The notes beneath the pieces were generated by a model, which saw only the letters and a program-made list of their open reading frames with translations, was not told the origin of the DNA and made no database searches. From NCBI GenBank assembly GCA_021413965.1, contig JAIOPI010000021.1, positions 220,671 through 284,670 on the forward strand: a stretch of DNA of 64,000 nucleotides. Direction: 5' to 3'. This document shows, piece by piece, positions 3,181 through 64,000 of this stretch. Each line of letters begins with the position of its first letter. Within the stretch, counting starts at the first letter, position 1. This DNA is from Lentisphaerota bacterium (GTDB taxonomy: Bacteria > Verrucomicrobiota > Kiritimatiellia > UBA8416 > JAIOPI01). Made by a program: the position numbers and the translations under genes.

Positions 3181-3364
3181 GCGAATGTGGTGGGCGTTTG
3201 GTGCGCAACTGGGACGGCCATTTCACCTCATCCTCTGCGTTCTCGCCGGCGGTGCGTACCCGGAGTACAGCACCGCCGGCGACGCCTTGAGGCTGGGGCA
3301 AACTGGCCATCCCATTTGCGCATCGCGCCTGCGGCGCGAAGCCAAACGCCCACCACGTTTGCCC
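3181..3364. repeat. Nested-palindrome element A (~185 bp, MITE/REP-like) with terminal motif GAATGTGGTGGGCGTTTGG
   Basis: Left end gcgaatgtggtgggcgtttggtgcg (3181-3205) is inverted at ccaaacgcccaccacgtttgcc (3341-3364). Inner inverted repeats are ttgcgcaactgggacggccat and ggccatcccatttgcgca. Confidence 0.7.
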
Positions 3365-3642
3365 TCGCTTTGCACCCCGCCGGCGGAGCGGGGTGCTGGC
3401 GAGTTCGGACTGGGGACGCCGCTTAAATGGACACATCGTCACCACCGATGATGCCTTCCGCCTACGCGCAGACGCTACGGCGGATCTGTGAGGCTGGCTT
3501 GCCCGCCGTAGCCGATGGCGAAGGCGGGGGCAAACGGGCCGTTCGCGAGTCCAGATTTGGGCAATGAGCTTGTCGTCAGCCCATCAGTTTCTCCGCTCCG
3601 AACTCGCCGTCGCCCCGTCTGCCACGGGGCGACTGGCGAGGG

Positions 3643-3827
3643 CAAACGTGGTGGGCGTTTGGGTGCCCGCCCGCCGCGGGCGGGATGCGCATCGGGTGCG
3701 GCAAGCTTGCCGGAGCGCAAGGCGCGGGAGGCGGCGCCATACTCTTGGGTATGCGCCGCCTCTCGCAACGCCGCGATCTGGCAAGATCGCCGCACCCGAT
3801 GCGCACCAAACGCCCACCACATTCGCG
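3643..3827. repeat. Nested-palindrome element B (~185 bp), tandem to A with swapped ends
   Basis: Left caaacgtggtgggcgtttgg is inverted at ccaaacgcccaccacattcgcg. The inner 25-bp inverted repeat is gcgcatcgggtgcggcaagcttgcc / ggcaagatcgccgcacccgatgcgc. Confidence 0.7.
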
Positions 3828-3908
3828 TCAACCCGCCACCATCGCCTCGCGCGCGAGCCGCGCGGTTCCGGCTTGCACCGCGTCGGCGCGGGCGTGGTAG
3901 TGTGGGGC

Positions 3909-4844
3909 ATGTCACGTCGCTATGCCATCGTGGGGTGCGGGGCCGTTGGCGGCTACTACGGCGCCTGCCTCCAACGCGCCGGCGCCGAGGTGCACTACCT
4001 GCTGCACCGCGATTATGACCATGTGCGCGCGCACGGCCTGCGTATCGACTCCAAATTCGGCAACTTCGTCCTGCCGCGCGTTCATGCCGCGCAGCGGCCG
4101 GACCAGGTCCCACCTTGCGACGTGGTGCTGGTGGGGTTGAAGACCACCGCCAACCACGTGCTGCCGGAGATCCTGCCGCGGCTGCTGGCGCCGGGCGGGG
4201 TGGTACTCCTGCTGCAGAATGGGCTGGGGGAAGAGGACGCGCTGGCACGCATCCCCGGGGTCGGGACCATCGTCAGCGGACTGTGTTTCCTGTGCGCAAA
4301 CAAGGTGGGGCCCGGTCACGTCCTGCACCTCGACTATGGCGCCATCATGCTCGGCGAATATCGGGCCGATGGACGCCCGGCCGGCGTCACGCCCGCCATG
4401 CAGGCGATCGCCGCCGATTTCAAGCCCACGGGCATCCCCATCGAATTGCTGGAGGACTTGCTGGGCGCACGCTGGAAGAAACTCGTGTGGAACATTCCCT
4501 TCAATGGCTTGTCGGTGCTGCTGAACACGGACACGCGGCGCCTCATGGACGATCCGGGCCTGCGTCCGGTTATCCGCGGCCTGATGGAGGAGGTCGTGGC
4601 CGCCTCCGCCGCCACGGGGCACGCGGTCCCGGCGGGATTCATCGACAAGATGGTGGCGCAGACGGAAGCGATGGCGGCCTACTTGCCCAGCATGAAACTC
4701 GACTACGACGCCGGGCGCCTGCTCGAACTGAGCAGCATGTACGAGGCGCCCCTGCGACAGGCCAGCGCCGCTGGCGCCACCATGCCCCTGACCGAAGCGC
4801 TGTGGCGGGAGTTGGGGTTCATGGAAAACTCCAAGGGGCGGTGA
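3909..4844 (+). CDS. panE: 2-dehydropantoate 2-reductase (ketopantoate reductase)
   Basis: MSRRYAIVGCGAVGGYYGACL is a Rossmann GxGxxG; the LVGLKTTAN region and the C-terminal ApbA domain follow. The start is M116 of ORF 3564; the upstream part of that ORF is a translation of the repeats. Confidence 0.9.
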   Translation: MSRRYAIVGCGAVGGYYGACLQRAGAEVHYLLHRDYDHVRAHGLRIDSKFGNFVLPRVHAAQRPDQVPPCDVVLVGLKTTANHVLPEILPRLLAPGGVVLLLQNGLGEEDALARIPGVGTIVSGLCFLCANKVGPGHVLHLDYGAIMLGEYRADGRPAGVTPAMQAIAADFKPTGIPIELLEDLLGARWKKLVWNIPFNGLSVLLNTDTRRLMDDPGLRPVIRGLMEEVVAASAATGHAVPAGFIDKMVAQTEAMAAYLPSMKLDYDAGRLLELSSMYEAPLRQASAAGATMPLTEALWRELGFMENSKGR

Positions 4845-5104
4845 CGAGCGCGTCCGGCTGTTGCGGCGGAAGTTTGCCTACGGATCACCCAGCGCAGCGC
4901 CACCGCAACCAAAGCAGGTGGAATCTGGAACTCAGGAAATCAGGAGCGGCAGTCGTGCCCGATCCTTCTTGAGTTCCTGAGTTCCTGATAGTCTTCTCAG
5001 GAAAGCGCGATATTGGCGGATTGTCGTACAGGGTGACACGGATGGGGAGATGAGATGGGAACCGTTACGCGACTTGCCATGCGGTGCGCCGCAGGAGACT
5101 TCGA

Positions 5105-6064
5105 ATGAACTATGTGCAGCTCGGCAAGACCGACCTGATGGTTTCGCGCATTTGTTTTGGCTGCTGGCAGCTGTCACCCCGCTTCTGGGGCGACGTGCCG
5201 CTCAAGCCTTGGGAGGCGGCGTTGAGCGTGGCGCTCGAGCGGGGCGTCAACTTCATCGATACGGCGGATGCGTATGGCGAGGGCTATGCCGAGGAGTGTC
5301 TCGGGAATTACATGCACGCGCAGGGAGTCCGTGATCGCCTCGTCCTGGCGACCAAGTTCTACTGGCACTACACGGATGACGGCGGGCGGTATCCCGATAC
5401 GGCGCACGACCGCGTCCTGCAGGCATGCGAGGCATCGCTGCGGAGATTGCGCACGGATCGCATCGATCTGTACCAGGTGCACGCATTCGATCCGCTGACG
5501 CGACCGGAGGAGGTGGGGGCCGCCCTGCGCAGGCTGAAGCAGGAGGGCAAAGTGCGGTGGTGTGGCGTCAGCAACCTCAACGCCGAACAGATGCGGATGT
5601 ACCAGGCGCATGTTCCCATCGAGTGCCTGCAACCGCTCTACAACCTGATCGACCGCGACGTGGAGTGCGCCGAGTTGCCGTACTGCCAGGCCAACCGTGT
5701 CGGCGTGATTCCGTACTCCCCGTTGCACCGTGGGTTGCTGACGGGCAAATACCGGCCGGACACGGTGTTCACGGATAATCGCAACGAGTTGCCACTGTAT
5801 CATGGCCGCGCGTTTCAGCGCATGCTGGCGGCTATGGACGAGCTGCGGCCTGTGGCCGCAGACCTGGGACTGACGCTGCCGCAGTTGGCGGTGCGCTGGG
5901 TGTTGACGCATCCCGCCGTGACGGCCGCGATCGCCGGCGTGAAGACGCGCGAGCACATTGAAACCATCCTGCCTGCGGCGGAGGCCAACCTGCCCGCGGT
6001 GGTGTGGCACCAGGTGGCCGGCATCATCGCCAATGCGAAGGCCGAAGCGCTAAGACTGTTGTAA
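5105..6064 (+). CDS. Aldo/keto reductase family oxidoreductase
   Basis: MNYVQLGKTDLMVSRICFGCWQL ... IDTADAYGEGYAEE ... IDLYQVHAFDP are classic AKR motifs. Confidence 0.9.
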   Translation: MNYVQLGKTDLMVSRICFGCWQLSPRFWGDVPLKPWEAALSVALERGVNFIDTADAYGEGYAEECLGNYMHAQGVRDRLVLATKFYWHYTDDGGRYPDTAHDRVLQACEASLRRLRTDRIDLYQVHAFDPLTRPEEVGAALRRLKQEGKVRWCGVSNLNAEQMRMYQAHVPIECLQPLYNLIDRDVECAELPYCQANRVGVIPYSPLHRGLLTGKYRPDTVFTDNRNELPLYHGRAFQRMLAAMDELRPVAADLGLTLPQLAVRWVLTHPAVTAAIAGVKTREHIETILPAAEANLPAVVWHQVAGIIANAKAEALRLL

Positions 6065-6271: not shown

Positions 6272-7897
6272 CTATGGCGCTTCGACGGCAACGCGGAAAT
6301 AGGAGGCGGTCGCGGCGGTCTGGGCGGTGTAGATGTTCACCGGTGGCGTGGCGGCGAGGTTGGTGGCCAGGGCCGCAAAGGCATCGAACAGGTTGGTGCC
6401 ATGCCGCACGGCGTATTGCCGTCCATCGACGCTGGCCCAGTGCACCACCGGCGCGCCCTCGGGTGAAACATCCGTGGCCGTCAACGCCAGGCGGCTGACG
6501 GGATTCGTGGCGTCGGTCCCCGCCACCGCTTCATCCGCATCGCGGACGGTGTCGCCGTCGCTGTCGACCAGCGCATGCACATACTCGTAGGCGCCAATAT
6601 CCCATGCGTTGGTGCCGTCGGCATTGCCGTCGAGCGGGCGCGCGACGCCGAGGAGATCGCGGGGCGCCTCGGGGCGGTCAAGGCCGCGATCAACGGCGGC
6701 ACTGCCCGGCAGCAGGTGCAGATCGCTGAAGGGATCCATCACGAGCGACGCCGGCGCGGCGACAAAGGAGTGCAGGTCGTAGCCGTGCGTGCGCCAACTG
6801 GTGAGATTGATCACGTTGCCGCCGTCGTTGATCGAGAACCGGCCGATGACGGTGTTGTAGTCGGAGACAAAGCCTTCCAGATTCGCGACGGGAATCGTGA
6901 TGCTGCCGCGGAAGGAGTGGAAGCAGTAGGTCAGGTTGTTGAACACCCGGTTGCTCACGCAGCCCGTGCTGGCGAGATTGATCGCCCAGCCGCCATTGTT
7001 GGCGCCCATGATGATCGTGTTGTTCACGATCCAGTTCAGGCGCGAGGCGATCGCGGCATTGCCCTTGAACAGCGCGATACCGCTGTTGTTGGTCGAGTTG
7101 TAGATGAGGTTGTTGCGGACGATCGTGCGCTCGACGCCGTCCATGTTGATGCCCGCACCGCCCTGGCCATTGGAGAAGATGACGTTGTTCTCCACGATTC
7201 CGTCGGAGATCGCGCCGTCCCAAACCCAGGGGGAGCCGGTCGGCGGGGCCACGCTGATGTCCGCGTTCATGTGCAGCCCGGCGTTGCGGTTGTGGTGGAG
7301 GGTGTTGCCCCGGATCACGAAGCGGTCGCTGCTGTTGTTGTAGTAGATGCCGTGTTCTCGGTTGTCGCTGCAGGTGTTGCCTTCGATCAGTGCGTCGTAG
7401 GAGAACGCGGTAAAAATTCCGGTCGAGGCGCTGTTGGACACGGTGTTACCGCGGACGACGAGGAACTGGGTCGAGCGGGCGTCGATGCCGTAGCGCCCGG
7501 AGTTCACGACGCGCAGCCCTTCAATGGTCCAGTGGCGCACCACATACGGGGCGCTGTAGGTTTCCAGTTCCAGGACGCTCTGATGCACGGCCGCCGCGCT
7601 CGAGGCGTTGAGCGTGGCTGTTCCTGGCGTTGCAGGGCGCAGGGTGATCGGAGCCTCGGAGGAGCCGGAGCGCTCGATGCGGGCGCCGGCATACGCACCG
7701 GGGAGCAGGAGGATCGTGTCACCGGGCGCCACGCTGTTGACCGCCTTCTGCACCGTGCGGAAGGCGGCGACTTCTGACAGCCCGTTGCTGGCGTCGCTGC
7801 CGGTGGTGGCCACGTAGTACGTGCCGGCTTCCGCTCCCGCCGTGCACAACGCGAACGAGGCCATGACCGCGCGGCACGCCATGCGGGCGCCGCTCAT
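6272..7897 (-). CDS. Secreted right-handed parallel beta-helix repeat protein (pectate-lyase fold)
   Basis: Signal peptide MSGARMACRAVMASFALCTAGAEA; repeated NxxIxxN/GxxI beta-helix rungs (IRGNTLHHNRNAGLHM, VENNVIFSNGQGGAGIN). The start ATGA overlaps the stop of the upstream HAD gene. Confidence 0.8.
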   Translation of the reverse strand: MSGARMACRAVMASFALCTAGAEAGTYYVATTGSDASNGLSEVAAFRTVQKAVNSVAPGDTILLLPGAYAGARIERSGSSEAPITLRPATPGTATLNASSAAAVHQSVLELETYSAPYVVRHWTIEGLRVVNSGRYGIDARSTQFLVVRGNTVSNSASTGIFTAFSYDALIEGNTCSDNREHGIYYNNSSDRFVIRGNTLHHNRNAGLHMNADISVAPPTGSPWVWDGAISDGIVENNVIFSNGQGGAGINMDGVERTIVRNNLIYNSTNNSGIALFKGNAAIASRLNWIVNNTIIMGANNGGWAINLASTGCVSNRVFNNLTYCFHSFRGSITIPVANLEGFVSDYNTVIGRFSINDGGNVINLTSWRTHGYDLHSFVAAPASLVMDPFSDLHLLPGSAAVDRGLDRPEAPRDLLGVARPLDGNADGTNAWDIGAYEYVHALVDSDGDTVRDADEAVAGTDATNPVSRLALTATDVSPEGAPVVHWASVDGRQYAVRHGTNLFDAFAALATNLAATPPVNIYTAQTAATASYFRVAVEAP

Positions 7898-8808
7898 GCG
7901 TTGCCCAGGTCCAGGGTGAGTTGCCCCTGCACGACGACCTTGCGGCCGGTGGGCACATCGGGATCGGCCGTGTAGTACACCACGAACTTGACCGACGGGA
8001 ACTGCCGGGCCAGCTCGGCGCGGATGTATTCCTCCACCGCGCGCGCGTTGCCGACATCATCGTCGGAGAAGCCGACGCTGATGGGGCGTGTCAGGCCGCG
8101 CTGGTGGGAAATGCGAATCACGTGCTCCACGAAATCCTGTATGGCGAACTGCTTGCCTTCCTCCGTGCGCACGGCGGCCGCCCCGCGCTTGCCGACCATC
8201 AGCTGCTTGAACTGCGGCGACATGACGCCGTGGTATTTGTTGTGATCGAGGTAGTAGGCAATGACTTCGGCATCCGTGCCGGGATGGGCTTCCGGGGCGA
8301 AGCTGAGCATGTAGCCGCGCAGGTTGCTCAGCATCTGGTTCTTCTCGTCGTCGGTGAGGACGCGCTCGATGAAATACTCGACGGCGGCCCGAATGATGTC
8401 GGGATTGTGACCGCGCGCGGTGACGATGGCGAAGAGCCGGCCTTCGATCAGCGTCAGCTTGAAGCGCTGGAAACTGGGGGCCAGGCTGGTCTCGCCGTGC
8501 ATGACGCGGTCGATGGCTGTCTTGGTGTCGCGCAGGAAGACGTTCTGGTCCTCGTCGTCGAAATCGCGGAATTCAAGGAACGCGTTTTCCCAGTCGCCAC
8601 CGGGCGGGCGGTAATTCCGGGTGTCGTTGCGAATGACGCTGAACACGGCCGTGGACACGGCGTGGGGCACCCAGCGGCCATCCTCCGTCCGCTTTTCGAG
8701 GTGGATGTGCGTGGGCATGTGCAGGATGTTGTCATCCCAGTCGAAGATGTAATACTTCAGGTCGCGCTCGGCGACCGAGTAGTTGACGTGATGCGACAAT
8801 GTGACCAT
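7894..8808 (-). CDS. HAD-family 5'-nucleotidase-like hydrolase
   Basis: MVTLSHHVNYSVAERDLKYYIFDWDDNILHMPTH; DWDDN is the HAD DxD nucleophile motif. The start was set by residue index (M46). A 4-bp ATGA overlap couples it to the beta-helix gene. Confidence 0.75.
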   Translation of the reverse strand: MVTLSHHVNYSVAERDLKYYIFDWDDNILHMPTHIHLEKRTEDGRWVPHAVSTAVFSVIRNDTRNYRPPGGDWENAFLEFRDFDDEDQNVFLRDTKTAIDRVMHGETSLAPSFQRFKLTLIEGRLFAIVTARGHNPDIIRAAVEYFIERVLTDDEKNQMLSNLRGYMLSFAPEAHPGTDAEVIAYYLDHNKYHGVMSPQFKQLMVGKRGAAAVRTEEGKQFAIQDFVEHVIRISHQRGLTRPISVGFSDDDVGNARAVEEYIRAELARQFPSVKFVVYYTADPDVPTGRKVVVQGQLTLDLGNA

Positions 8809-11403: not shown

Positions 11404-11490
11404 CCAGGTGGCCCGCGACCTCCGGGCGCGGGTGTCGCAGGCGAAGCCTTTCTGGCACCGCCCGCGCCCGGAGATCGCGGGCCACCTCGG
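11404..11490. repeat. REP family 1: palindromic pair of the 28-bp motif AGGTGGCCCGCGACCTCCGGGCGCGGG
   Basis: aggtggcccgcgacctccgggcgcgggtg (11404-11434) and its inverted copy caccgcccgcgcccggagatcgcgggccacct (11457-11490) are separated by 23 bp, in the divergent intergenic region between the SGNH gene and clpS. Confidence 0.7.
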
Positions 11491-13707: not shown

Positions 13708-13777
13708 CGCCGCCCGGAGGTCGGCACCCACCTTCGGCGAGCGGCGCAAGGTGGCCCGCGATCTCCGGGCGCGGGTG
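13708..13777. repeat. REP family 1 palindromic pair
   Basis: gccgcccggaggtcggcacccaccttcggcg (an inverted variant) and aaggtggcccgcgatctccgggcgcgggtg (13748-13777), 8 bp apart. Confidence 0.65.
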
Positions 13778-19956: not shown

Positions 19957-20069
19957 GGACACCCACCCCGCCCTCACGGGCACCCTTCCGGCGGAAGGGA
20001 TCAGCCTGAAAACAGGAAGCCGTCAATCCCCTCCCGGGGAGGGGTGCCCGTCAGGGCGGGGTGGGTGTT
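19957..20069. repeat. Compound palindromic element (REP family 3), bidirectional terminator-like
   Basis: The 31-bp outer inverted repeat acacccaccccgccctcacgggcacccttcc / ggaggggtgcccgtcagggcggggtgggtgt encloses two inner hairpins (cccttccggcggaaggg; cccctcccggggagggg). It sits between convergent recQ and the ABC permease. Confidence 0.65.
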
Positions 20070-20076
20070 TCAAACG

Positions 20077-20865
20077 CTACGAGCTTGCTGAGGAATAGGC
20101 GCGGAGGCCGGCGCGCCAGAAGACGGCCACGACGACGATGAAGGCGGCGAGCACGGCGGAGACGTGGAGGAAGAGGCCGGGATCGAAGGGTTCGAAGAAG
20201 AAGCGCACGGGCACGGAGGCCATGAGCGCGAAGGGCAGCACCGTGGTGAGCAGCACGCGCACGGCGCCGGTGTAGATGCGGTCGGGGCGTTCGATGAAGC
20301 GCGTCATGTGCCAGAACATCATCTGCAGGCCCTGGCCCCGGTGCCACCAGAAGACGGGGATGATGGTCAGCATGCGCATGAGGTAACGGAGGAGGAACCC
20401 CATGCACAGCGAGCCGGCCAGCAGGATGAGCCCGCCCGGGGTGATGGGGCCGGTGTAGCGGCTGAGGAAGTAGCCGAGGATGCCGAAGGCCATGAGCAGG
20501 TTGACGAACGAGTTGGCGGCGAAGTCGCGCAGGCTGAGCATGAAGAGCGGCGAGACGGGCCGGATCAGGTGGTAGTCGAGATCGCCGCGGTTAATCGACT
20601 GGGGCAATTGATAGAGGTTGTTGGCGAGCACGGTCATGTCGAGGGCGTCGAGCAGCAGGAAGCAGCCGACGAAGACCATGGCCTGGTTTTCGTCCCAGCC
20701 GCCCAGCGTGGTGGTATGCAGGTAGATGATGCGGAAGAAGACGATGTCGATGAAGTAGAAGAAGACATCCATGACGATGCGGAAGCAGAAATCGACGCGG
20801 AACTCCATGGCGCGGCTGAAGGAGAAGCGCAGGCAGTAGCCGTAGAGTGTGAGGTAGCGCCACAT
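20077..20865 (-). CDS. ABC-2 family transporter permease
   Basis: The real start is MWRYLTLYGYCLRF (M119 of the ORF); 6 TM helices, ABC-2 type. A 1-nt TGATG overlap couples it to the upstream permease. Confidence 0.8.
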   Translation of the reverse strand: MWRYLTLYGYCLRFSFSRAMEFRVDFCFRIVMDVFFYFIDIVFFRIIYLHTTTLGGWDENQAMVFVGCFLLLDALDMTVLANNLYQLPQSINRGDLDYHLIRPVSPLFMLSLRDFAANSFVNLLMAFGILGYFLSRYTGPITPGGLILLAGSLCMGFLLRYLMRMLTIIPVFWWHRGQGLQMMFWHMTRFIERPDRIYTGAVRVLLTTVLPFALMASVPVRFFFEPFDPGLFLHVSAVLAAFIVVVAVFWRAGLRAYSSASS

Positions 20866-21641
20866 CAGATGCCCACCCCCGAGTACTGATGCTGGCCGCG
20901 CTCCCACACGAGGCGGTAGAGCAGGGTGCAGACGACGGCCCAGGCGGTCACGACGAGCATGCCGGATACCCAGCGCGCGGGGGAGGTCAGGCCGAGGAGG
21001 GTTTCCACGGGGAAGGCGATGAGGTAGGCGAAGGGCATCCGGTACAGGAGCGCATGCGCCCAGTCGGGGAAGAGCGCGAGGGGCAGCATGGCGCCGCCGA
21101 GCAGGGACGTGAGGAAGCGCATGATGACGACGAGGCTCCAGACGTTGTCGGCCCAGAAGGCGATGAGCTCCAGCGTGGCCACCAGGACGAAGTTCAGGTA
21201 GGCGGCGACGAGCAGGCACGCCAGCCCGCCCGCGACGGATGCGGGCGAGAGCGAAAATTCGGAGGGGATGCCGATGGTGAAGGCGAAGAGCGTCATGACG
21301 AGGGCGAACTGGGCGGCGAAGATGCAGACGTAGGCCGTGGCGGCGGCCAGCTTGTAGCGGAAGAATGAGACCGGGTAGACGAGGTAGCGGGTCAGCGTGC
21401 CGTTGTAGATCTCTTCGGAGATGTCGCCCATTTCACCGCCCTGGACCATGCGGGCCGCGAGTGGCGCGGCCAGGTAGTAGAGCATCATGCCGGTAAAGCT
21501 GAAGGCGCCGACGTGATCCACCCCGCGCGTCGTGTAGATCGCCTGCCAGAGAAACCAGGCGACGCCGAACTGGGCCAGCAGCGATCCGAGAAACTGCGAC
21601 CAGAAGTCCATGCGGTAGGAGAGGACCTTCCGGATCTCCAT
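20865..21641 (-). CDS. ABC-2 family transporter permease
   Basis: MEIRKVLSYRMDFWSQFLGSLLAQFG is a typical ABC-2 permease N-terminus; the alternative start 21710 has no Shine-Dalgarno. Confidence 0.75.
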   Translation of the reverse strand: MEIRKVLSYRMDFWSQFLGSLLAQFGVAWFLWQAIYTTRGVDHVGAFSFTGMMLYYLAAPLAARMVQGGEMGDISEEIYNGTLTRYLVYPVSFFRYKLAAATAYVCIFAAQFALVMTLFAFTIGIPSEFSLSPASVAGGLACLLVAAYLNFVLVATLELIAFWADNVWSLVVIMRFLTSLLGGAMLPLALFPDWAHALLYRMPFAYLIAFPVETLLGLTSPARWVSGMLVVTAWAVVCTLLYRLVWERGQHQYSGVGI

Positions 21642-21714
21642 GGTGAAGACCGCGAGGGGCCAGCGCGGGAACCCACTTGGCGGCGATGCGGTTGACGAGG
21701 TGGTGAGCATGAGA

Positions 21715-21970
21715 TTCAGGGGGGAAGGGGGGGAGTAGGAGTAGGGTTCAGGGTTCGGGGTTCAGGGGTACCGTACGGTTATGGGGTGACACTTTCGGGA
21801 TCGGATGTTCACGCAGAGACCACAGAGGGCGCAGAGAGGGACTGAAAGTCTGTGATCGCTGCATCGCTGCGTAAGATTCCTTCCCGAGACATTCAACATT
21901 CAACTCGCAACGTTCTTTCCTGAACCCTGAACCCCGAACCCCGCTTTCTCCCCCTCCTCCGCCCCCCGCA
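21715..21970. mobile_element. MITE-like element with ~55-bp terminal inverted repeats built from (GGGTTCN)3 plus G-runs
   Basis: Left arm ggggggaagggggggagtaggagtagggttcagggttcggggttcagggg; right arm cctgaaccctgaaccccgaaccccgctttctccccctcctccgcccccc; a 148-bp core lies between them. The element fills the whole 265-bp gap between the ABC ATPase stop and the permease start, where tight coupling is expected. Confidence 0.6.
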
Positions 21971-21974
21971 CGCG

Positions 21975-22952
21975 TCACCCTTTCTGGATGGCCTCGATGA
22001 TGGAGCTGATGTCCGGATCTTCGATGTTGAGGTCCTGGACGGTGAAGTGCTCGAGCAGGAACTTGGCGCCGTCGCCGGCGCGGTCGCGCCCGACTTTGAT
22101 CTGGATGCGATCGCGCGTGGCCTCCACGACCGAGCCCAGCGTGGCCGGCATGCCGGACAGGTCGGGGACACCCGCGGCGGGATCGAGTTGGGCCGTGACC
22201 AGCTTGTGCGGGGCGAAGTCACGCACGATACGCTCCAGGCTGCCATCGAAGACGACCGCGCCCTTGCGAATGATCACGATGCGGCGGCAGAGTTGCTCGA
22301 TGTCGTCCATGTAGTGCGACGTGACGATCATGGCCGGCTGGTGAACCTGGCGATACTCGAGCAGGAAGCTGCGGATGGCCCGCTGGGTGGTGATGTCCAG
22401 GCCGATGGTGGGTTCGTCGAGGAACACGACCTTGGGCTTGTGCAGCAGCGTGGCGATCAGCTCCATCTTCATGCGTTCGCCCAGCGAGAGGCGGCGGATC
22501 TGGGTGGTGAGCAGATCGCCCACGCTCAACTGGTTGCAGAGCAGATCGAGCTGCGCCTGGAATTCGGCGGGGGGGATGCGGTAGATCTCGCGCAGCAGCA
22601 GGAAGCAGTCGGCGGCGGGGAGGTCCCACCAGAGCTGGGCCTTCTGGCCCATGATCAGCGCGATGCGGCGGCGGAAATCGTTGTGACGCAGCCAGGGGAC
22701 GTGGCCGAGCACCGAGACCTGGCCACTGGTGGGGTGGATGATGCCGGCCAGGATTTTGACGAGCGTGGTCTTCCCGGCGCCGTTGGCTCCCACCAGGCCG
22801 ACGATCTCGCCGGCATCGACGTCGAGCGAGACGTTGTCGAGCGCCCGCTTGTCCTCCCACTGCCGCCAGAAGAGCGCGCGCAGCGACCCGCGCAAGCCGG
22901 GGGCCTTGCGATGGATGCGGTAGACTTTGGACACGTTCTGGACGTGAATCAC
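21975..22952 (-). CDS. ABC transporter ATP-binding protein (ABC-2/DrrA-like)
   Basis: GTG start VIHVQNVSKVYRIH with AAGGAA 5 nt upstream; Walker A GANGAGKTT, signature LSLGERMK, Walker B VVFLDEPT. The upstream part of the track ORF is shadow. Confidence 0.85.
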   Translation of the reverse strand: MIHVQNVSKVYRIHRKAPGLRGSLRALFWRQWEDKRALDNVSLDVDAGEIVGLVGANGAGKTTLVKILAGIIHPTSGQVSVLGHVPWLRHNDFRRRIALIMGQKAQLWWDLPAADCFLLLREIYRIPPAEFQAQLDLLCNQLSVGDLLTTQIRRLSLGERMKMELIATLLHKPKVVFLDEPTIGLDITTQRAIRSFLLEYRQVHQPAMIVTSHYMDDIEQLCRRIVIIRKGAVVFDGSLERIVRDFAPHKLVTAQLDPAAGVPDLSGMPATLGSVVEATRDRIQIKVGRDRAGDGAKFLLEHFTVQDLNIEDPDISSIIEAIQKG

Positions 22953-26092: not shown

Positions 26093-26106
26093 GCGACTCG
26101 TCCGTG

Positions 26107-26129
26107 CCCGGAGGTCGCGGACCACCTGG
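26107..26129. repeat. REP family 1 single copy (inverted variant)
   Basis: cccggaggtcgcggaccacctgg is the reverse complement of ccaggtggtccgcgacctccggg; it lies between convergent FGE and the ABC permease. Confidence 0.55.
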
Positions 26130-40714: not shown

Positions 40715-40743
40715 AAGGTGGCCCGCGACCTCCGGGCGCGGGC
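40715..40743. repeat. REP family 1 copy
   Basis: aaggtggcccgcgacctccgggcgcgggc, followed by the palindrome cgcgggtcgccgacccgcg; it lies between convergent yjiK-like and the STK. Confidence 0.6.
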
Positions 40744-59684: not shown

Positions 59685-62447
59685 CTACTTCGCCACGACT
59701 TCGGACGGCTGCCGCTTGCCGTTGGTCACGGGAGCCGTCGCCACACGGACCACGTCCACGGCACAAACCTTGTACTCGGGGCACAGTGCATCCTTGTCGG
59801 ACACGCTGCTGGTGAGGGTGTTGATCTTGAGTTCCGGGAAGTGGAAGGTCGTGTACAGCACGCCGGGCTTCACGCTGGTGGAGCGGTAGGCGTGCAGCCG
59901 GATCTCTCCGCGCGCGGATGACAGCGCCACCAGGTCCCCGTCCTCGATGCGCTTGGCCGCGGCATCGTCGGGATGGATCAGCAGCACGTCCGCGCCCAGG
60001 ATGTCCGCATTGCCCGTGCGCCGGGTCATGGTGCCGCAGTTGTAGTGCTCCAGCTTGCGGCCCGTGGTGAGGATGTAGGGGAACCGCTCGCCGTTATCCA
60101 CAATCTCCGAGGACTCCTCCCAGTCGAAGTAGTGGAACTTGCCGCGCCCGCGTTTGAACGAGTCGACATGGATGAGCGGCGAGTCGTGGCCGTCCGGATA
60201 CACCGGCCACTGCTTGCCGTCCGTGCCGAGTTCGTCCCACTTCACGCCGGCGAAGAACGGCACGACGCGCGCGATCTCCTCCAGCAGCACGGCCGGGTCC
60301 GGGCCCTTTTGCGGGTAGCCCATGCGATTCATGATGTCGACCATGATCTGCCCGTCGGTCTTCGTGCCCGCCAGCGGCGGCACGACCTCCAGCACGCGCT
60401 GAATGCGCCGCTCGCCGTTGGTGAACGTTCCGCTCTTCTCGAGGAACGTCGTCGCCGGCAGCACCACGTGCGCCAACTTTGCGGTTTCGGTGAGGAAGAT
60501 CTCCTGGACCACCAGCAGGTCGAGGCACGTCAGCGCGGCGAGCACATGGTTGGTGTTCGGGTCCGTCTGCGCGAGGTCCTCGCCCATGAGCCACAGCGCC
60601 TTGAGCTTGCCGGCCAGCGCGGCCTCATACATCTGCGGAATCTTCAAGCCGGCGTGCTTCGGCAGTGTCACGCCATAGATCGACTCGTAGTGGGCCTGGA
60701 CATCGGGCAGGGTGACATCCAGATAGCCCGCGCCCTGGTGGGGCTGCGTCCCCATGTCCGCACAGCCCTGGACGTTGTTCTGGCCGCGCAGCGGGTTCAC
60801 GCCCACGCCCGGCCGGCCGATGTTCCCGGTCATCATGGCCAGGTTCGCGATCAGGTTGATGGTGCGCGTGCCCTGGCTGTGCTCGGTGACCCCCAGGCCG
60901 TGGAACTCCATGGCGTTGCGGGCCGAGGCGTAGGCGATCGCCGCCTCGCGGACGAGGTGGCGATCCACGCCGCAGATGCGCTCCATGGCGACCACATCCA
61001 GCGTGCGGATCTGCGCCTCGAACTCGGCAAAGCCCTCGCAGCGCTGGGCCACAAAATCCCGTTTTACCAGGCCCGCCTCGATGATGAAGTAGGCCATCAT
61101 GTTGAGCAGCGCCACGTTGGTGCCGGGCCGCAGGGCGAGGTGCCACTGTGCATAGGCCGCCAGCTCCGTGCGCATGGGGTCGATCACGATCAGCGTCGCG
61201 CCCTTCATGACCTTCTGCTTGATCTTCGCGCCGGTCACGGGGTGGCCGGAGGTCGGGTTGGCGCCGATGATCAGAATCAGGTCCGTCTGGTCCAGGCAGG
61301 CGATGGAGTTGGTGGCCGCGCCGGTGCCGAAGCTGCGCTGCATGCCCAGCGCCGTGGGCGAGTGGCAGACGCGCGCGCAGCTGTCGATGTTGTTCGTGCC
61401 GACGACGGCGCGAATGAACTTCTGCATCAGGTAGTTCTCTTCGTTCGTGCAGCGCGCGGAGGAAATGCCGGCGATGGCGTCGGGGCCGTGCGCGCCGCGG
61501 ATGCGGGTCAGCTCCCCGGCGATGAAATCGTAGGCTTCGTCCCACGTGGCGGGCTGGAGCGTGCCCTGGCGCCGGACCAGGGGCTGGCGCAGGCGGTCGG
61601 GGTGGGTGACGAAGCGGAAGGCGTAGCGCCCCTTCAGGCAGGTGTGCCCGCGGTTGGACTTGGCATCCTTCGGGGCCGTGATCGCGAGGATCTCGTTCTC
61701 CTTCACATGCACGTCGAGGTTGCAGCCGACCCCGCAGTAGGAGCACACCGTTCGCTGCGAGCGCGTGGCCTCGTGCTTGCGCGGCAGATTGATGTCCGTG
61801 ATCGCGCCCGTGGGGCAGGTCTGCGCACAGGCCCCGCAGGAGACGCAGGGCGACGCCTTGTAGGAGACGTCCGCGCCCATGATGACGCGGCTGTCGAACC
61901 CGCGGCCCTTCATCCCGAGCACGAACTGCCCCTGGATTTCGTCGCAGGCCCGGATGCAGCGGAAGCAGTTGATGCAGGCGCTCAAGTCCGCGCGCATGTA
62001 GGGGTGCGTGGTGTCCGGCCGGCGGTCCTGATGGTGTTTTCCCGGCGCGTAGCGCACGGCCGTGGGATCCAGGCCGACGTGCGCGATCACGTCCCGCAGT
62101 TCGGCGTCGCCGTTGCGCGGGGTCGAGGTCAGCTTGTCCACCGGGTAATCCGTCAGGACCAGCTCCACAATGTTGCGGCGCAGGCGCTGCACCCGGGGCG
62201 AGTGGTGGAAGATGTGCAGGTTCTCCGACACCGGCGTGTGACAGGAGGCGACGACGCGCCGCGGGCCGTCGGGCTTCAGCGCGACTTCGACCGAGCAGAC
62301 GCGGCAGGATCCGAAGGGCTCCAGCAGTTCGTCGTAACACAGCGTGGGAATCGTGCGCTTGCCGACGTGGCGCTCGACGAACTGCAGGATGGTTTCACCA
62401 TCGCGGATCTCAAAGGGCTGGCCGTCGATGTAGGCGATTGGGTTCAT
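59685..62447 (-). CDS. fdsA: Formate dehydrogenase alpha subunit, NAD-dependent type (N-terminal 2Fe-2S/4Fe-4S NuoG-like domains plus Mo-bisPGD catalytic domain; Cys, not Sec)
   Basis: CYDELLEPFGSCRVCSV, CINCFRCIRAC and CVSCGACAQTC are cluster motifs; the molybdopterin domain SCARVCHSPT has Cys at the Sec position and no in-frame TGA. Confidence 0.9.
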   Translation of the reverse strand: MNPIAYIDGQPFEIRDGETILQFVERHVGKRTIPTLCYDELLEPFGSCRVCSVEVALKPDGPRRVVASCHTPVSENLHIFHHSPRVQRLRRNIVELVLTDYPVDKLTSTPRNGDAELRDVIAHVGLDPTAVRYAPGKHHQDRRPDTTHPYMRADLSACINCFRCIRACDEIQGQFVLGMKGRGFDSRVIMGADVSYKASPCVSCGACAQTCPTGAITDINLPRKHEATRSQRTVCSYCGVGCNLDVHVKENEILAITAPKDAKSNRGHTCLKGRYAFRFVTHPDRLRQPLVRRQGTLQPATWDEAYDFIAGELTRIRGAHGPDAIAGISSARCTNEENYLMQKFIRAVVGTNNIDSCARVCHSPTALGMQRSFGTGAATNSIACLDQTDLILIIGANPTSGHPVTGAKIKQKVMKGATLIVIDPMRTELAAYAQWHLALRPGTNVALLNMMAYFIIEAGLVKRDFVAQRCEGFAEFEAQIRTLDVVAMERICGVDRHLVREAAIAYASARNAMEFHGLGVTEHSQGTRTINLIANLAMMTGNIGRPGVGVNPLRGQNNVQGCADMGTQPHQGAGYLDVTLPDVQAHYESIYGVTLPKHAGLKIPQMYEAALAGKLKALWLMGEDLAQTDPNTNHVLAALTCLDLLVVQEIFLTETAKLAHVVLPATTFLEKSGTFTNGERRIQRVLEVVPPLAGTKTDGQIMVDIMNRMGYPQKGPDPAVLLEEIARVVPFFAGVKWDELGTDGKQWPVYPDGHDSPLIHVDSFKRGRGKFHYFDWEESSEIVDNGERFPYILTTGRKLEHYNCGTMTRRTGNADILGADVLLIHPDDAAAKRIEDGDLVALSSARGEIRLHAYRSTSVKPGVLYTTFHFPELKINTLTSSVSDKDALCPEYKVCAVDVVRVATAPVTNGKRQPSEVVAK

Positions 62448-62464
62448 TATCTGCTCTTGGTCGG

Positions 62465-62545
62465 AATCGTAATCTTAATCCTAATCGTAATCTCCCGCGG
62501 TTGGCCGGCGATTAAGATTAGGATTACGATTAAGATTATGACTGG
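62465..62545. repeat. AT-rich palindrome of hexamer repeats (AATCNT)5 ... (ANGATT)5 between fdsB and fdsA
   Basis: aatcgtaatcttaatcctaatcgtaatc tcccgcggttggccggcg attaagattaggattacgattaagatt; local GC is about 35% in a 68% GC genome; the arms have periodic mismatches at the N position. Confidence 0.7.
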
Positions 62546-62551
62546 GATTTG

Positions 62552-64000
62552 CTATTCAAAGTATTCCCGCAATTCCCCCTCGAAGTGTTTCAGCGCATTC
62601 TGGATCGGCAGCGGGACGCCGCTGCCGTGCGCGCACAGGCTGGTCAGCGCCATCGTGTCCAGCAGGTCATTCAGCAGCTCGCGGTTGAGTTTGGCGCGCC
62701 CGTGGGCTGCCGCGGCCAGCATCTCCTGCCCGCGCGTCGAGCCCAGGCGGCAGGGGAAGCACTTGCCGCACGATTCCGCCGCGCAGAACTCCATGAGATG
62801 TTCGAGGTACTGGATCATCGGGAAACTTTCGGGAATGCCCAGGATGCTGCCATGCCCGAGCAGGAAGCCCGCCTCCCGGAACGATTCGAAATCAATGGTC
62901 AGGCTGCCGAACATCGATTTGGGGACGAGGCCCCCCAGCGGGCCGCCGATGTGCAGGGCCTTGACGGGCACACGGAAGCCGCCGCCGAGCGTGTCGATCA
63001 CCGTGGTTAGCGGCGTGCCCATGGGCACTTCGTAGAGGCCGGGGCGATTGAACACGCCGTTGAGGCAAACCAGCTTCGCCCCTGTTGACTGCGGGGTGCC
63101 GATGCGGGCAAAGGCTTCGCCGCCGGCGATCAGGATCTGATGCACGTGGGCAAAGGTCTCGACATTGTTGACGACGGTCGGCTGGCCGTAAAGCCCTTGC
63201 GTGGTGGGGTAGGGCGGGCGGGCGCTGACTTCGGGGCGGCGGCCCTCGATTGACGCGATCAGCGCCGTCTCCTCGCCGCAGATGTAGGCGCCCGCGCCGG
63301 CAATGACCTTGAACGTGAACGAGAAGTCCGTGCCGAACACGCGCGCGCCGGCGGCGCCGGCAGCCTCCGCCTCGCGCACGGCGGCACGCGTGGCCTCCAC
63401 GGCTTCGGGGTACTCGGCGCGAATGTAGACGACGCCCTCGCTGGCGCCGACGACCCAGCCCGCCACGAGCATACCGAAGAGCACGCGGTGAGGCTGCTGC
63501 TCCAGCAGGTAGCGGTCAATGTACGCGCCGGGGTCGCCCTCATCGCCGTTGCAGACGATGTACTTCCTGGCGCCGGGGGCGGCCTTCGCCGCGGCCCACT
63601 TGGCGCCGGTGGGGAAGCCCGCCCCGCCGCGGCCGCGCAGCCTGGCGCGCGTGACCTCGTCCAGCGCGGCTTCCGGCGGACGCTGCAAGATCTCGCGCAG
63701 CGGTTCGTAGTAGGCGGCGACGCCGGGAAACGCGGCGGTCAGCACGGCGGGCGTGCCATGCGCGGCCACCGCATAGGTATCGCGGCGTGGCACTTCCGGC
63801 GTCGCCAGGATGGCGGCCAGGTTGTCCACGTCGCGGCCCGAAAAGTTGCGGCCGGCGATGTGGAATGCCGCGTTCTCGTGGCAGCGGCCCAGGCAGGTGA
63901 TGACGCCGACGTCCTCCGGCTTGAATGCTCGACCCAGGGCCTCCGCGACGCGCGGCTGCGTGCCCGCGCACAAGCAGGCCGATCCGTTACACACCAGCGC
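62552..64000 (-). CDS. fdsB: Formate dehydrogenase beta subunit (NuoF-like NADH-binding/FMN/4Fe-4S, with an N-terminal NuoE-like 2Fe-2S region; 5' end beyond the window)
   Basis: GRGGAGFPTGAKW, ICGEETALIASIEG, ESCGKCFPCR. The frame stays open upstream of the track GTG at 63994 (ALVCNGSACLCAG looks like a 2Fe-2S motif), so the N-terminus is off-window. Confidence 0.85.
   Translation of the reverse strand, partial: ALVCNGSACLCAGTQPRVAEALGRAFKPEDVGVITCLGRCHENAAFHIAGRNFSGRDVDNLAAILATPEVPRRDTYAVAAHGTPAVLTAAFPGVAAYYEPLREILQRPPEAALDEVTRARLRGRGGAGFPTGAKWAAAKAAPGARKYIVCNGDEGDPGAYIDRYLLEQQPHRVLFGMLVAGWVVGASEGVVYIRAEYPEAVEATRAAVREAEAAGAAGARVFGTDFSFTFKVIAGAGAYICGEETALIASIEGRRPEVSARPPYPTTQGLYGQPTVVNNVETFAHVHQILIAGGEAFARIGTPQSTGAKLVCLNGVFNRPGLYEVPMGTPLTTVIDTLGGGFRVPVKALHIGGPLGGLVPKSMFGSLTIDFESFREAGFLLGHGSILGIPESFPMIQYLEHLMEFCAAESCGKCFPCRLGSTRGQEMLAAAAHGRAKLNRELLNDLLDTMALTSLCAHGSGVPLPIQNALKHFEGELREYFE

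Follow-up and report, generated by a model that had tools for sequence, protein, structure and literature searches.

The ATP-binding and membrane subunits of ABC transporters in the family studied here are mostly encoded by closely packed genes, and the presence of a long spacer between two such genes in one Lentisphaerota-like genome raises the question of what this spacer is, how it came to lie there, and how the operon could accommodate it. The spacer lies within a 64-kb stretch of DNA (hereafter the window), and an original prediction made from its letters described it as a MITE-like element with inverted arms built of GGGTTCA heptamers, inserted into the operon. The anatomy of the spacer, its presence or absence in homologous operons, the distribution of its repeat unit in other genomes and its predicted fold were analysed, and each of them is considered below in relation to the possible origins and roles of the spacer.

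Anatomy of the ATPase/permease spacer

The gene calls, which were taken from an identical Logan contig (an independent assembly of run SRR15633504), revealed an ABC ATPase gene, a gap, a gene for a first permease and then a second permease (Table 1). The ATPase is 100% identical to a database protein (P0001, NCBI), and the exact permease protein is also on record, called from the ATG at 21710. The 23-codon N-terminal extension between this ATG and an internal methionine has a GC3 of 0.83, and an RWPLAVFT motif upstream of the internal methionine is conserved in relatives; because of these two sequence properties, ATG 21710 is the likely start of the permease, with ATG 21641 as the alternative.

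Measured from the ATPase stop codon to the permease ATG, the spacer comprises 264 nt (21711-21974), in close agreement with the gap of about 265 bp that had been predicted. Its GC3 was 0.54-0.66 over all six frames, as compared to 0.91-0.92 in the flanking genes, and the spacer is non-coding by this measure. A small open reading frame in the gap (76 aa, with a GTG start and overlapping the ATPase stop) was rejected, its GC3 being 0.55 as compared to 0.91 in real genes. A search of the whole window against Rfam gave nothing at the gathering threshold, and MIR1437, the sole match in an E-value scan of the region, was spurious (26.9 bits against a threshold of 168). No sigma-70-like promoter was found in the gap by consensus scan, and no terminator-like site, defined as a GC-rich hairpin with a U-tract, was found in 21400-22300.

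Repeat analyses with TRF revealed (AGGGTTC)x3.6 at 21743-21767 and (CCTGAAC)x3.3 at 21919-21941, which correspond to (GGGTTCR)3.6 on the plus strand and to its reverse complement, (YGAACCC)3.3, at the positions given in Table 1. The three tandem GGGTTCN heptamers with G-runs that had been noticed at both ends were confirmed by TRF, by a repeat finder and by pattern search. The sequence GGGTTCRGGGTTC occurs in four copies in the 64-kb window, all of them within the spacer, with 0.12 copies expected and none of 100 shuffles reaching four, and the pattern search found one GGGTTCR site in the whole window. According to TRF, tandem repeats account for about 40% of the spacer, as compared to about 2% across the window. 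The two arrays belong to an inverted repeat (21719-21766 and 21919-21966) with arms of 48 nt, 71% complementarity and 152 nt between them; in an alternative register the arms are 41 nt long at 78%, while the heptamer portion comprises 16 nt at 94%. Inverted arms around a core were therefore present as predicted, although their sizes, about 48 nt for the arms and 150-152 nt for the core, differed from the 55 bp and 148 bp first given.

The arms are degenerate tandem arrays which grade into the core. On the ATPase side, the G-rich arm begins 7 nt past the TGA and its heptamers 32 nt past it, while on the permease side the C-rich arm ends 8 nt 5' of the ATG, and the outer arm is read on the mRNA as a pyrimidine-only tract immediately 5' of the permease AUG.

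Table 1. Features of the ATPase/permease locus in the order of the operon transcript (positions in the window).
Feature	Position	Strand	Evidence
ABC transporter ATPase, 325 aa, stop TGA 21975-21977	21975..22952	-	gene call, Pfam ABC_tran, GC3 0.91
Outer 5' arm on mRNA, G-run, SD-like tract GCGGGGGGCGGAGGAGGGGGAGAAAGC, degenerate; pairs with 21711-21743	21943..21974	-	inverted repeat, fold
(GGGTTCR)3 array on operon strand; plus strand is CCTGAACCCTGAACCCCGAACCCC	21919..21942	-	TRF, pattern search, inverted repeat
Unique 150-nt core, weakly palindromic itself	21769..21918	.	TRF, fold, copy searches, GC3
Core tandem duplication (ACATTCA)x2.3	21889-21904		TRF
Core tandem duplication (ATCGCTGC)x2	21855-21870		TRF
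Core tandem duplication (CGCAGAGAC)x2.9	21812-21837		TRF
(GGGTTCR)3.6 array; on mRNA the C-rich 3' arm (YGAACCC)n	21744..21768	+	TRF, pattern search, inverted repeat
Outer arm, G-runs GGGGGGAAGGGGGGGAG and (GTAGGA)2	21711..21743	+	sequence, inverted repeat
Predicted closing stem, 3' half CAUGCUCACC, includes permease start codon 21708-21710	21702..21711	-	MFE and centroid structures
ABC-2 permease 1, 281 aa, Pfam ABC2_membrane_6, followed by permease 2	20865..21710	-	gene call

Comparison with homologous operons

Junctions were compared by counting the nucleotides that separate the ATPase stop from the conserved permease methionine. This distance was 333 nt in the window, as compared to 65 nt in the closest syntenic relative (loci L002 and L003, ATPase identity 83%) and 73 nt in a second relative (L004, ATPase identity 75%), while in a third (L127, ATPase identity 70%) stop and start overlap as ATGA. 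The median over 77 homologous junctions was 29 nt, and the only junctions longer than 73 nt were those of the window, L162 (301 nt) and L189 (191 nt). Because the homologous junctions are short or overlapping, a tight, translationally coupled junction is the probable ancestral state, and the spacer is lineage-specific as judged by this sequence comparison. The claim that the gap contains extra DNA relative to orthologous operons was in this respect well founded, the spacer being absent from the closest relative and from 74 of the 77 homologous junctions.

Other repeats were found at the same junction in two of these operons. In L002, a direct array, (AATCGGC)4.4, is located between the ATPase and permease genes at 6988-7018 and begins within the stop codon. 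In L162, a distant homologue, the 301-nt gap opens with (CAAATCC)4, which is followed by other short and inverted repeats (2182-2450), and a predicted stem closes at the stop and start codons of that gap (z = -4.4). That L002 has another heptamer array here, in direct orientation, points to local repeat growth and not to transposition. The neighbouring intergenic regions were also compared. A palindrome without periodicity, whose arms measure 43 nt at 86% (dG -96 kcal/mol, z = -7.7), lies between convergent genes at 19959-20068 of the window, and at the corresponding place after permease 2 L002 has an unrelated inverted heptamer pair, (CGAAATC)n, at 8629-8786. Since these neighbouring hairpins differ wholly between the window and its 83% relative, such structures appear to turn over fast in this lineage.

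Inverted repeats of other composition were observed elsewhere in the window. Inverted hexamer arrays of (AATCGT/AATCTT/AATCCT)n at 62460-62542, with 39-nt arms at 82% (dG -36.7 kcal/mol, z = -5.4), form a hairpin. It takes up the 104 nt by which two co-directional genes on the minus strand are separated, one ending with a stop at 62552 and the next starting at 62447. Inverted arrays of an 8-mer, (GGAAxTCA)n, at 4922-4989 form a hairpin (dG -38.9 kcal/mol, z = -3.5) between the co-directional plus-strand open reading frames at 3564-4844 and 5084-6064. A 21-nt unit, GCRAAYGTGGTGGGCGTTTGG, is present four times in alternating orientation at 3181-3826 (3183+, 3342-, 3644+, 3806-), a region that overlaps the start of the open reading frame 3564-4844; its copies delimit two segments, each about 180 bp long and unrelated to each other inside, and further nested inverted repeats with arms of up to 47 nt are present.

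GGGTTCR arrays and inverted pairs in other genomes

A census in which one genome per species was scanned for GGGTTCRGGGTTCRGGGTTC revealed at least 120 stretches of (GGGTTCR)>=3, distributed over many phyla. Among the matches listed, about 42 stretches were from Planctomycetota, about 17 from Lentisphaerota/Kiritimatiellia/Verrucomicrobiota, about 15 from Acidobacteriota, about 10 from Gammaproteobacteria and about 6 from Actinomycetota, with other phyla besides, and in a number of cases several contigs of one MAG were matched. About a third of the arrays listed had an inverted array as partner. In many cases this partner lay no more than 400 nt away, in the order 5'-(GGGTTCA)n..core..(TGAACCC)n-3'. 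This order was tested for close pairs among the matches listed: a regular expression found 24 G-first and no C-first pairs, and TRF found 40 G-first pairs and one C-first pair, the exception having a gap of 374 nt, while for other units of 5-9 nt the counts by TRF were 20 G-first vs 7 C-first. When no pairing threshold was applied, at least two GAACCC were found within 300 nt on the 3' side in 39 of 110 arrays listed, and on the 5' side in none. The pair in the window is also G-first. As a palindrome is identical on both strands, the G-first order is intrinsic and does not result from the choice of strand. The likeness to telomeres that had been remarked upon is superficial, for the G-rich array comes first and the C-rich array second, and capped linear ends have the reverse order.

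The sequences enclosed by these pairs have nothing in common. The 23 GGGTTCA-flanked cores among the matches listed, 27-272 nt in length, gave no cross-matches and showed no similarity. At four loci, nested mirror-image layers of heptamers were found around one core (L086 5496-5650, L117 2803-2975, L030 1712-1865 and L039 6958-7077), the outer layer being, for example, GGGTATA outside GGGTTCA in L086 and GAGAGCA in L117, and the spacer likewise carries an extra outer layer of G-runs. The nesting suggests successive symmetric rounds of repeat addition. Taken together, the occurrence of GGGTTCR pairs across phyla, consistently in the G-first order and around unrelated cores, argues for a common directional mechanism or constraint.

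The gene context of the arrays was evaluated with simple gene calls. According to crude open reading frame calls, 8 pairs among the matches listed were between co-directional, 3 between convergent and 3 between divergent genes, and in this crude tally the pairs were not strongly biased towards co-directional junctions. Where single arrays lay between co-directional genes, they were G-rich on the sense strand in 21 cases and C-rich in 17 under a noisy home-made filter, and a Rho-based avoidance of C-rich RNA was unsupported by these noisy calls. For single G-arrays, crude gene calls gave a median distance to the nearest open reading frame of 41.5 nt at the 5' end and 211.5 nt at the 3' end, and the 5' end was the nearer one in 23 arrays and not in 11. 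It was also observed, at loci L007-L126, that three consecutive TGAACCC units place a TGA in all three frames of the C-rich strand, the G-rich strand being stop-free; the spacer has its C-rich arm, with these stops, just 5' of the permease AUG.

A literature search on GGGTTCA/TGAACCC repeats found no bacterial paper on this unit, but G-rich heptameric repeats with other units have been described, namely GGGAATC in Xanthomonas and GGGGA(C/T)T in Nostoc, which occur as hundreds of arrays per genome with four units preferred, and whose oligonucleotides fold into G4 structures in vitro (Rehm et al. 2015, PMC4692102). In Xanthomonas, 70-75 convergent GGGAATC pairs were counted per genome, and single G-arrays likewise point away from the nearest open reading frame; the arrays are enriched between aligned open reading frames, where the coding strand carries the G-rich array no more than 50 bp past the stop, and neither a link to mobile elements nor a function was identified (PMC4692102). 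The spacer resembles these repeats in its 7-nt units with a G-tract and an A/T-rich part, arranged in tandem in at least two copies (3.6 and 3.3 here), in its intergenic position between aligned genes, with the G-rich array after the stop and the C-rich array before the next start, in the convergent G-first order of its opposite-strand arrays, which include a G4 motif, and in its variation in length and sequence between close relatives with no tie to mobile elements. It differs in the unit, GGGTTCR as compared to the consensus GGGNATC, in its Lentisphaerota-like MAG host and the spread of the unit over many phyla, and in having arms nested in a degenerate G-run layer, a 150-nt core and a hairpin predicted to close on the stop and start codons. 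On these sequence features, the spacer is a member of the class of convergent G-rich heptamer repeat pairs, with GGGTTCR as a new unit.

Other known repeat systems are more distant. The STRR heptamers of cyanobacteria were reportedly described by Mazel et al. in 1990. In Beggiatoaceae, TAACTGA repeats form 169 direct sets and one indirect set (MacGregor 2015, PMC4679880). Both systems resemble the spacer as intergenic tandem heptanucleotides, often beside start codons, but they have other units and are almost always direct arrays, whereas the spacer is an inverted pair. REP and BIME elements are extragenic palindromes between co-transcribed genes, which fold in the mRNA and can shield upstream mRNA from 3' exonucleases; REPs are conserved units of 20-40 nt, present in many identical dispersed copies and mobilised by RAYT transposases, and REPINs are inverted doublets of fixed orientation. 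The spacer does not contain such a dispersed conserved unit of 20-40 nt, as its heptamer alone recurs in the DNA searched and the rest is unique there. A separate 22-nt dispersed repeat, GGTGGCCCGCGAYCTCCGGGCG, was observed in the window in five copies, with 0 expected (11407-11486, 13750-13771, 26105-26126 and 40717-40738); at 11406-11487 the copies are arranged as an inverted doublet (27-nt arms, 96%), and the repeat looks like a genuine REP/REPIN-type family of this genome.

Predicted fold and origin of the spacer

Folding of the minus-strand transcript predicted, from this single sequence, an energy of -143 kcal/mol for the operon-strand RNA of the spacer (z = -8.95), and none of 200 shuffles was as stable, in accordance with the very large mRNA hairpin that the original prediction had anticipated. 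The z-scores were -5.9 for the opposite-strand RNA and -4.3 for single-stranded DNA. Because the core also pairs with itself, the whole gap can be described as one long imperfect palindrome, in which a continuous duplex of about 25 bp in the predicted fold lies inside a longer stem. At the base of the hairpin, the 3' half of the closing stem, with the permease start codon, is predicted to pair with GGUGA-C-GCGUG at 21969-21979, which includes the ATPase stop codon. The closing-stem duplex was -14.4 kcal/mol, as compared to -9.0 +/- 2.6 in shuffles, of which 58 of 2000 equalled it (p about 0.03), and the modelled stem is thus only modestly better than chance.

The best explanation of these results taken jointly, held at about even confidence, is that the spacer is a locally grown tandem-repeat palindrome of the heptamer-pair class and not a MITE, and that it would be looped out of the mRNA with the coupling of the two genes kept. 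From its sequence, the spacer looks as if slippage and duplication had recurred locally at a site that tolerates them, and not like an imported, defined element. It would have arisen in this lineage at an ATPase/permease junction that was ancestrally tight and translationally coupled. In the polycistronic mRNA, it would fold into one long hairpin, the closing stem of which would hold both the ATPase UGA and the permease AUG, and with the insertion looped out the stop and start codons would remain adjacent. The permease AUG, having no Shine-Dalgarno sequence, would stay masked until the foot of the stem is melted by a ribosome that terminates at the UGA. Since this ribosome would open the lower stem and expose the AUG beside the stop, the ancestral coupling could survive a 264-nt insertion. 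No SD-like motif was found in the 30 nt upstream of the permease ATG, which are purine-poor, and an SD-like purine tract was found in 6 of 9 other called genes nearby. The predicted closure of the L162 gap at its own stop and start codons, and the position of the repeat-built hairpin at 62460-62542 between a stop and a start, are in line with the coupling idea. In the MS2 RNA phage and in ribosomal-protein operons, a downstream start is sequestered in a stem and opened by the ribosomes of the upstream cistron. The spacer would share with these systems a start codon held in a stem, as predicted here, but its stem closes a 264-nt repeat-built insertion, and its function, like its mode of origin, is one that we infer from the model. 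The long duplex may also be a plausible substrate of RNase III or a barrier to 3' exonucleases, and cleavage or blockage at this site could make the ATPase and permease segments of the mRNA independent of each other in stability; this idea rests on general knowledge of intercistronic stem-loops.

An unlikely but not negligible alternative is that the spacer is neutral debris of slippage, expanded in a tolerant spot, with a hairpin that has no role and a permease that is translated independently. The fast turnover of neighbouring hairpins between the window and its 83% relative speaks for this reading, as does the lack of conservation of the spacer, and no function was found for the Xanthomonas repeats (PMC4692102). 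However, the stop and start codons are paired in the predicted fold, and the strict G-first polarity across phyla is unexpected from undirected slippage. Moreover, an unstructured insert of 264 nt should be costly, because the ancestral junction is tight or overlapping and the permease start has no SD sequence.

A G-quadruplex element is considered improbable. The G-rich arm would in that case fold as a quadruplex in the RNA or in the non-template DNA and modulate transcription, translation or mRNA decay, and as it is transcribed about 200 nt before its complement, the C-rich arm could act as a competing partner in a kinetic switch. The suggestion of a quadruplex was correct as regards the motifs, for canonical G4 motifs are present in the 5' arm of each strand (on the plus strand at 21744 and on the minus strand starting at 21967), and the spacer holds one of the six plus-strand and at least one of the three minus-strand G4 motifs of the window. 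It is also in line with the in vitro quadruplexes of related heptamer oligonucleotides, with their preference for four units (PMC4692102), and with the G-first polarity, by which the G arm always emerges first. Nevertheless, pairing with the other arm into a long G:C duplex has a much higher predicted stability, and the same window has inverted pairs of units that are not G4-forming, such as the (AATCNT)n pair at 62460-62542.

The reading originally put forward, in which the spacer is a non-autonomous transposable element (MITE) with heptamer-built inverted ends, moved by a transposase encoded elsewhere in the genome, is now regarded as very unlikely. Like MITEs, the spacer is small and non-coding, has inverted ends and is absent from the orthologous site in relatives, and the absolute orientation rule of the heptamer pairs is what would be expected of a fixed mobile unit. 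A target-site duplication was not found, however, as the two 40-nt boundary zones share no direct repeat of more than 3 nt, a length that 1995 of 2000 shuffles matched. The search for further copies that had been proposed as a check was negative as well: blastn with the core and outer arms found no second copy in the 64-kb window or in about 1.3 Mb of other loci, and neither had a match in plasmid and phage collections. In addition, the 23 cores with the same flanking heptamers form no core-sharing family, all being unrelated even inside one contig or genome, the ends are degenerate tandem arrays of simple repeats that merge into the core, the same junction holds other heptamers in relatives (L002, L162), and the Xanthomonas repeats were reported without association to mobile elements (PMC4692102). 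What stands of the MITE-like description is therefore the inverted ends and the empty site, while no target-site duplication and, in the DNA searched, no second core copy was found, and on this sequence evidence the spacer is probably not a jumping element. An ancestral regulatory region, which had been set against an insertion as a spacer both single-copy and conserved in relatives, agrees with one half of the results, as the spacer appears to be single-copy in the DNA searched but relatives do not share it. It is highly improbable that the heptamers are an array of sites for a DNA- or RNA-binding protein that recognises them and regulates the operon, for although periodic identical units occur at many loci per genome and the TAACTGA repeats of Beggiatoaceae have prompted a similar proposal (PMC4679880), there is no known candidate protein, the units vary from site to site within one genome, and the site is absent from orthologous operons.

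Beyond this locus, a bolder proposal, to which only a low probability is given, is that convergent heptamer pairs were left behind by a directional process at the DNA level which many phyla have in common. This process might be slippage or templated synthesis on 3'-ended G-rich strands that flank a central break or hairpin, which would resemble a 'healing' of two ends that were later rejoined. Such a process would explain the G-first order (39:0 among the matches listed), the nested mirror-image layers and the tendency of single G-arrays to point away from the nearest open reading frame in either orientation of the latter. If it is true, the spacer of the window would record several directional repeat events at a junction of coupled genes.

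The heptamer-pair architecture known from Xanthomonas is now found with the GGGTTCR unit in Lentisphaerota, Planctomycetota, Acidobacteriota and other phyla. As a locally grown palindrome of this class, and provided that the predicted geometry holds, the spacer would be a concrete example of an operon that absorbed a large insertion without losing translational coupling.
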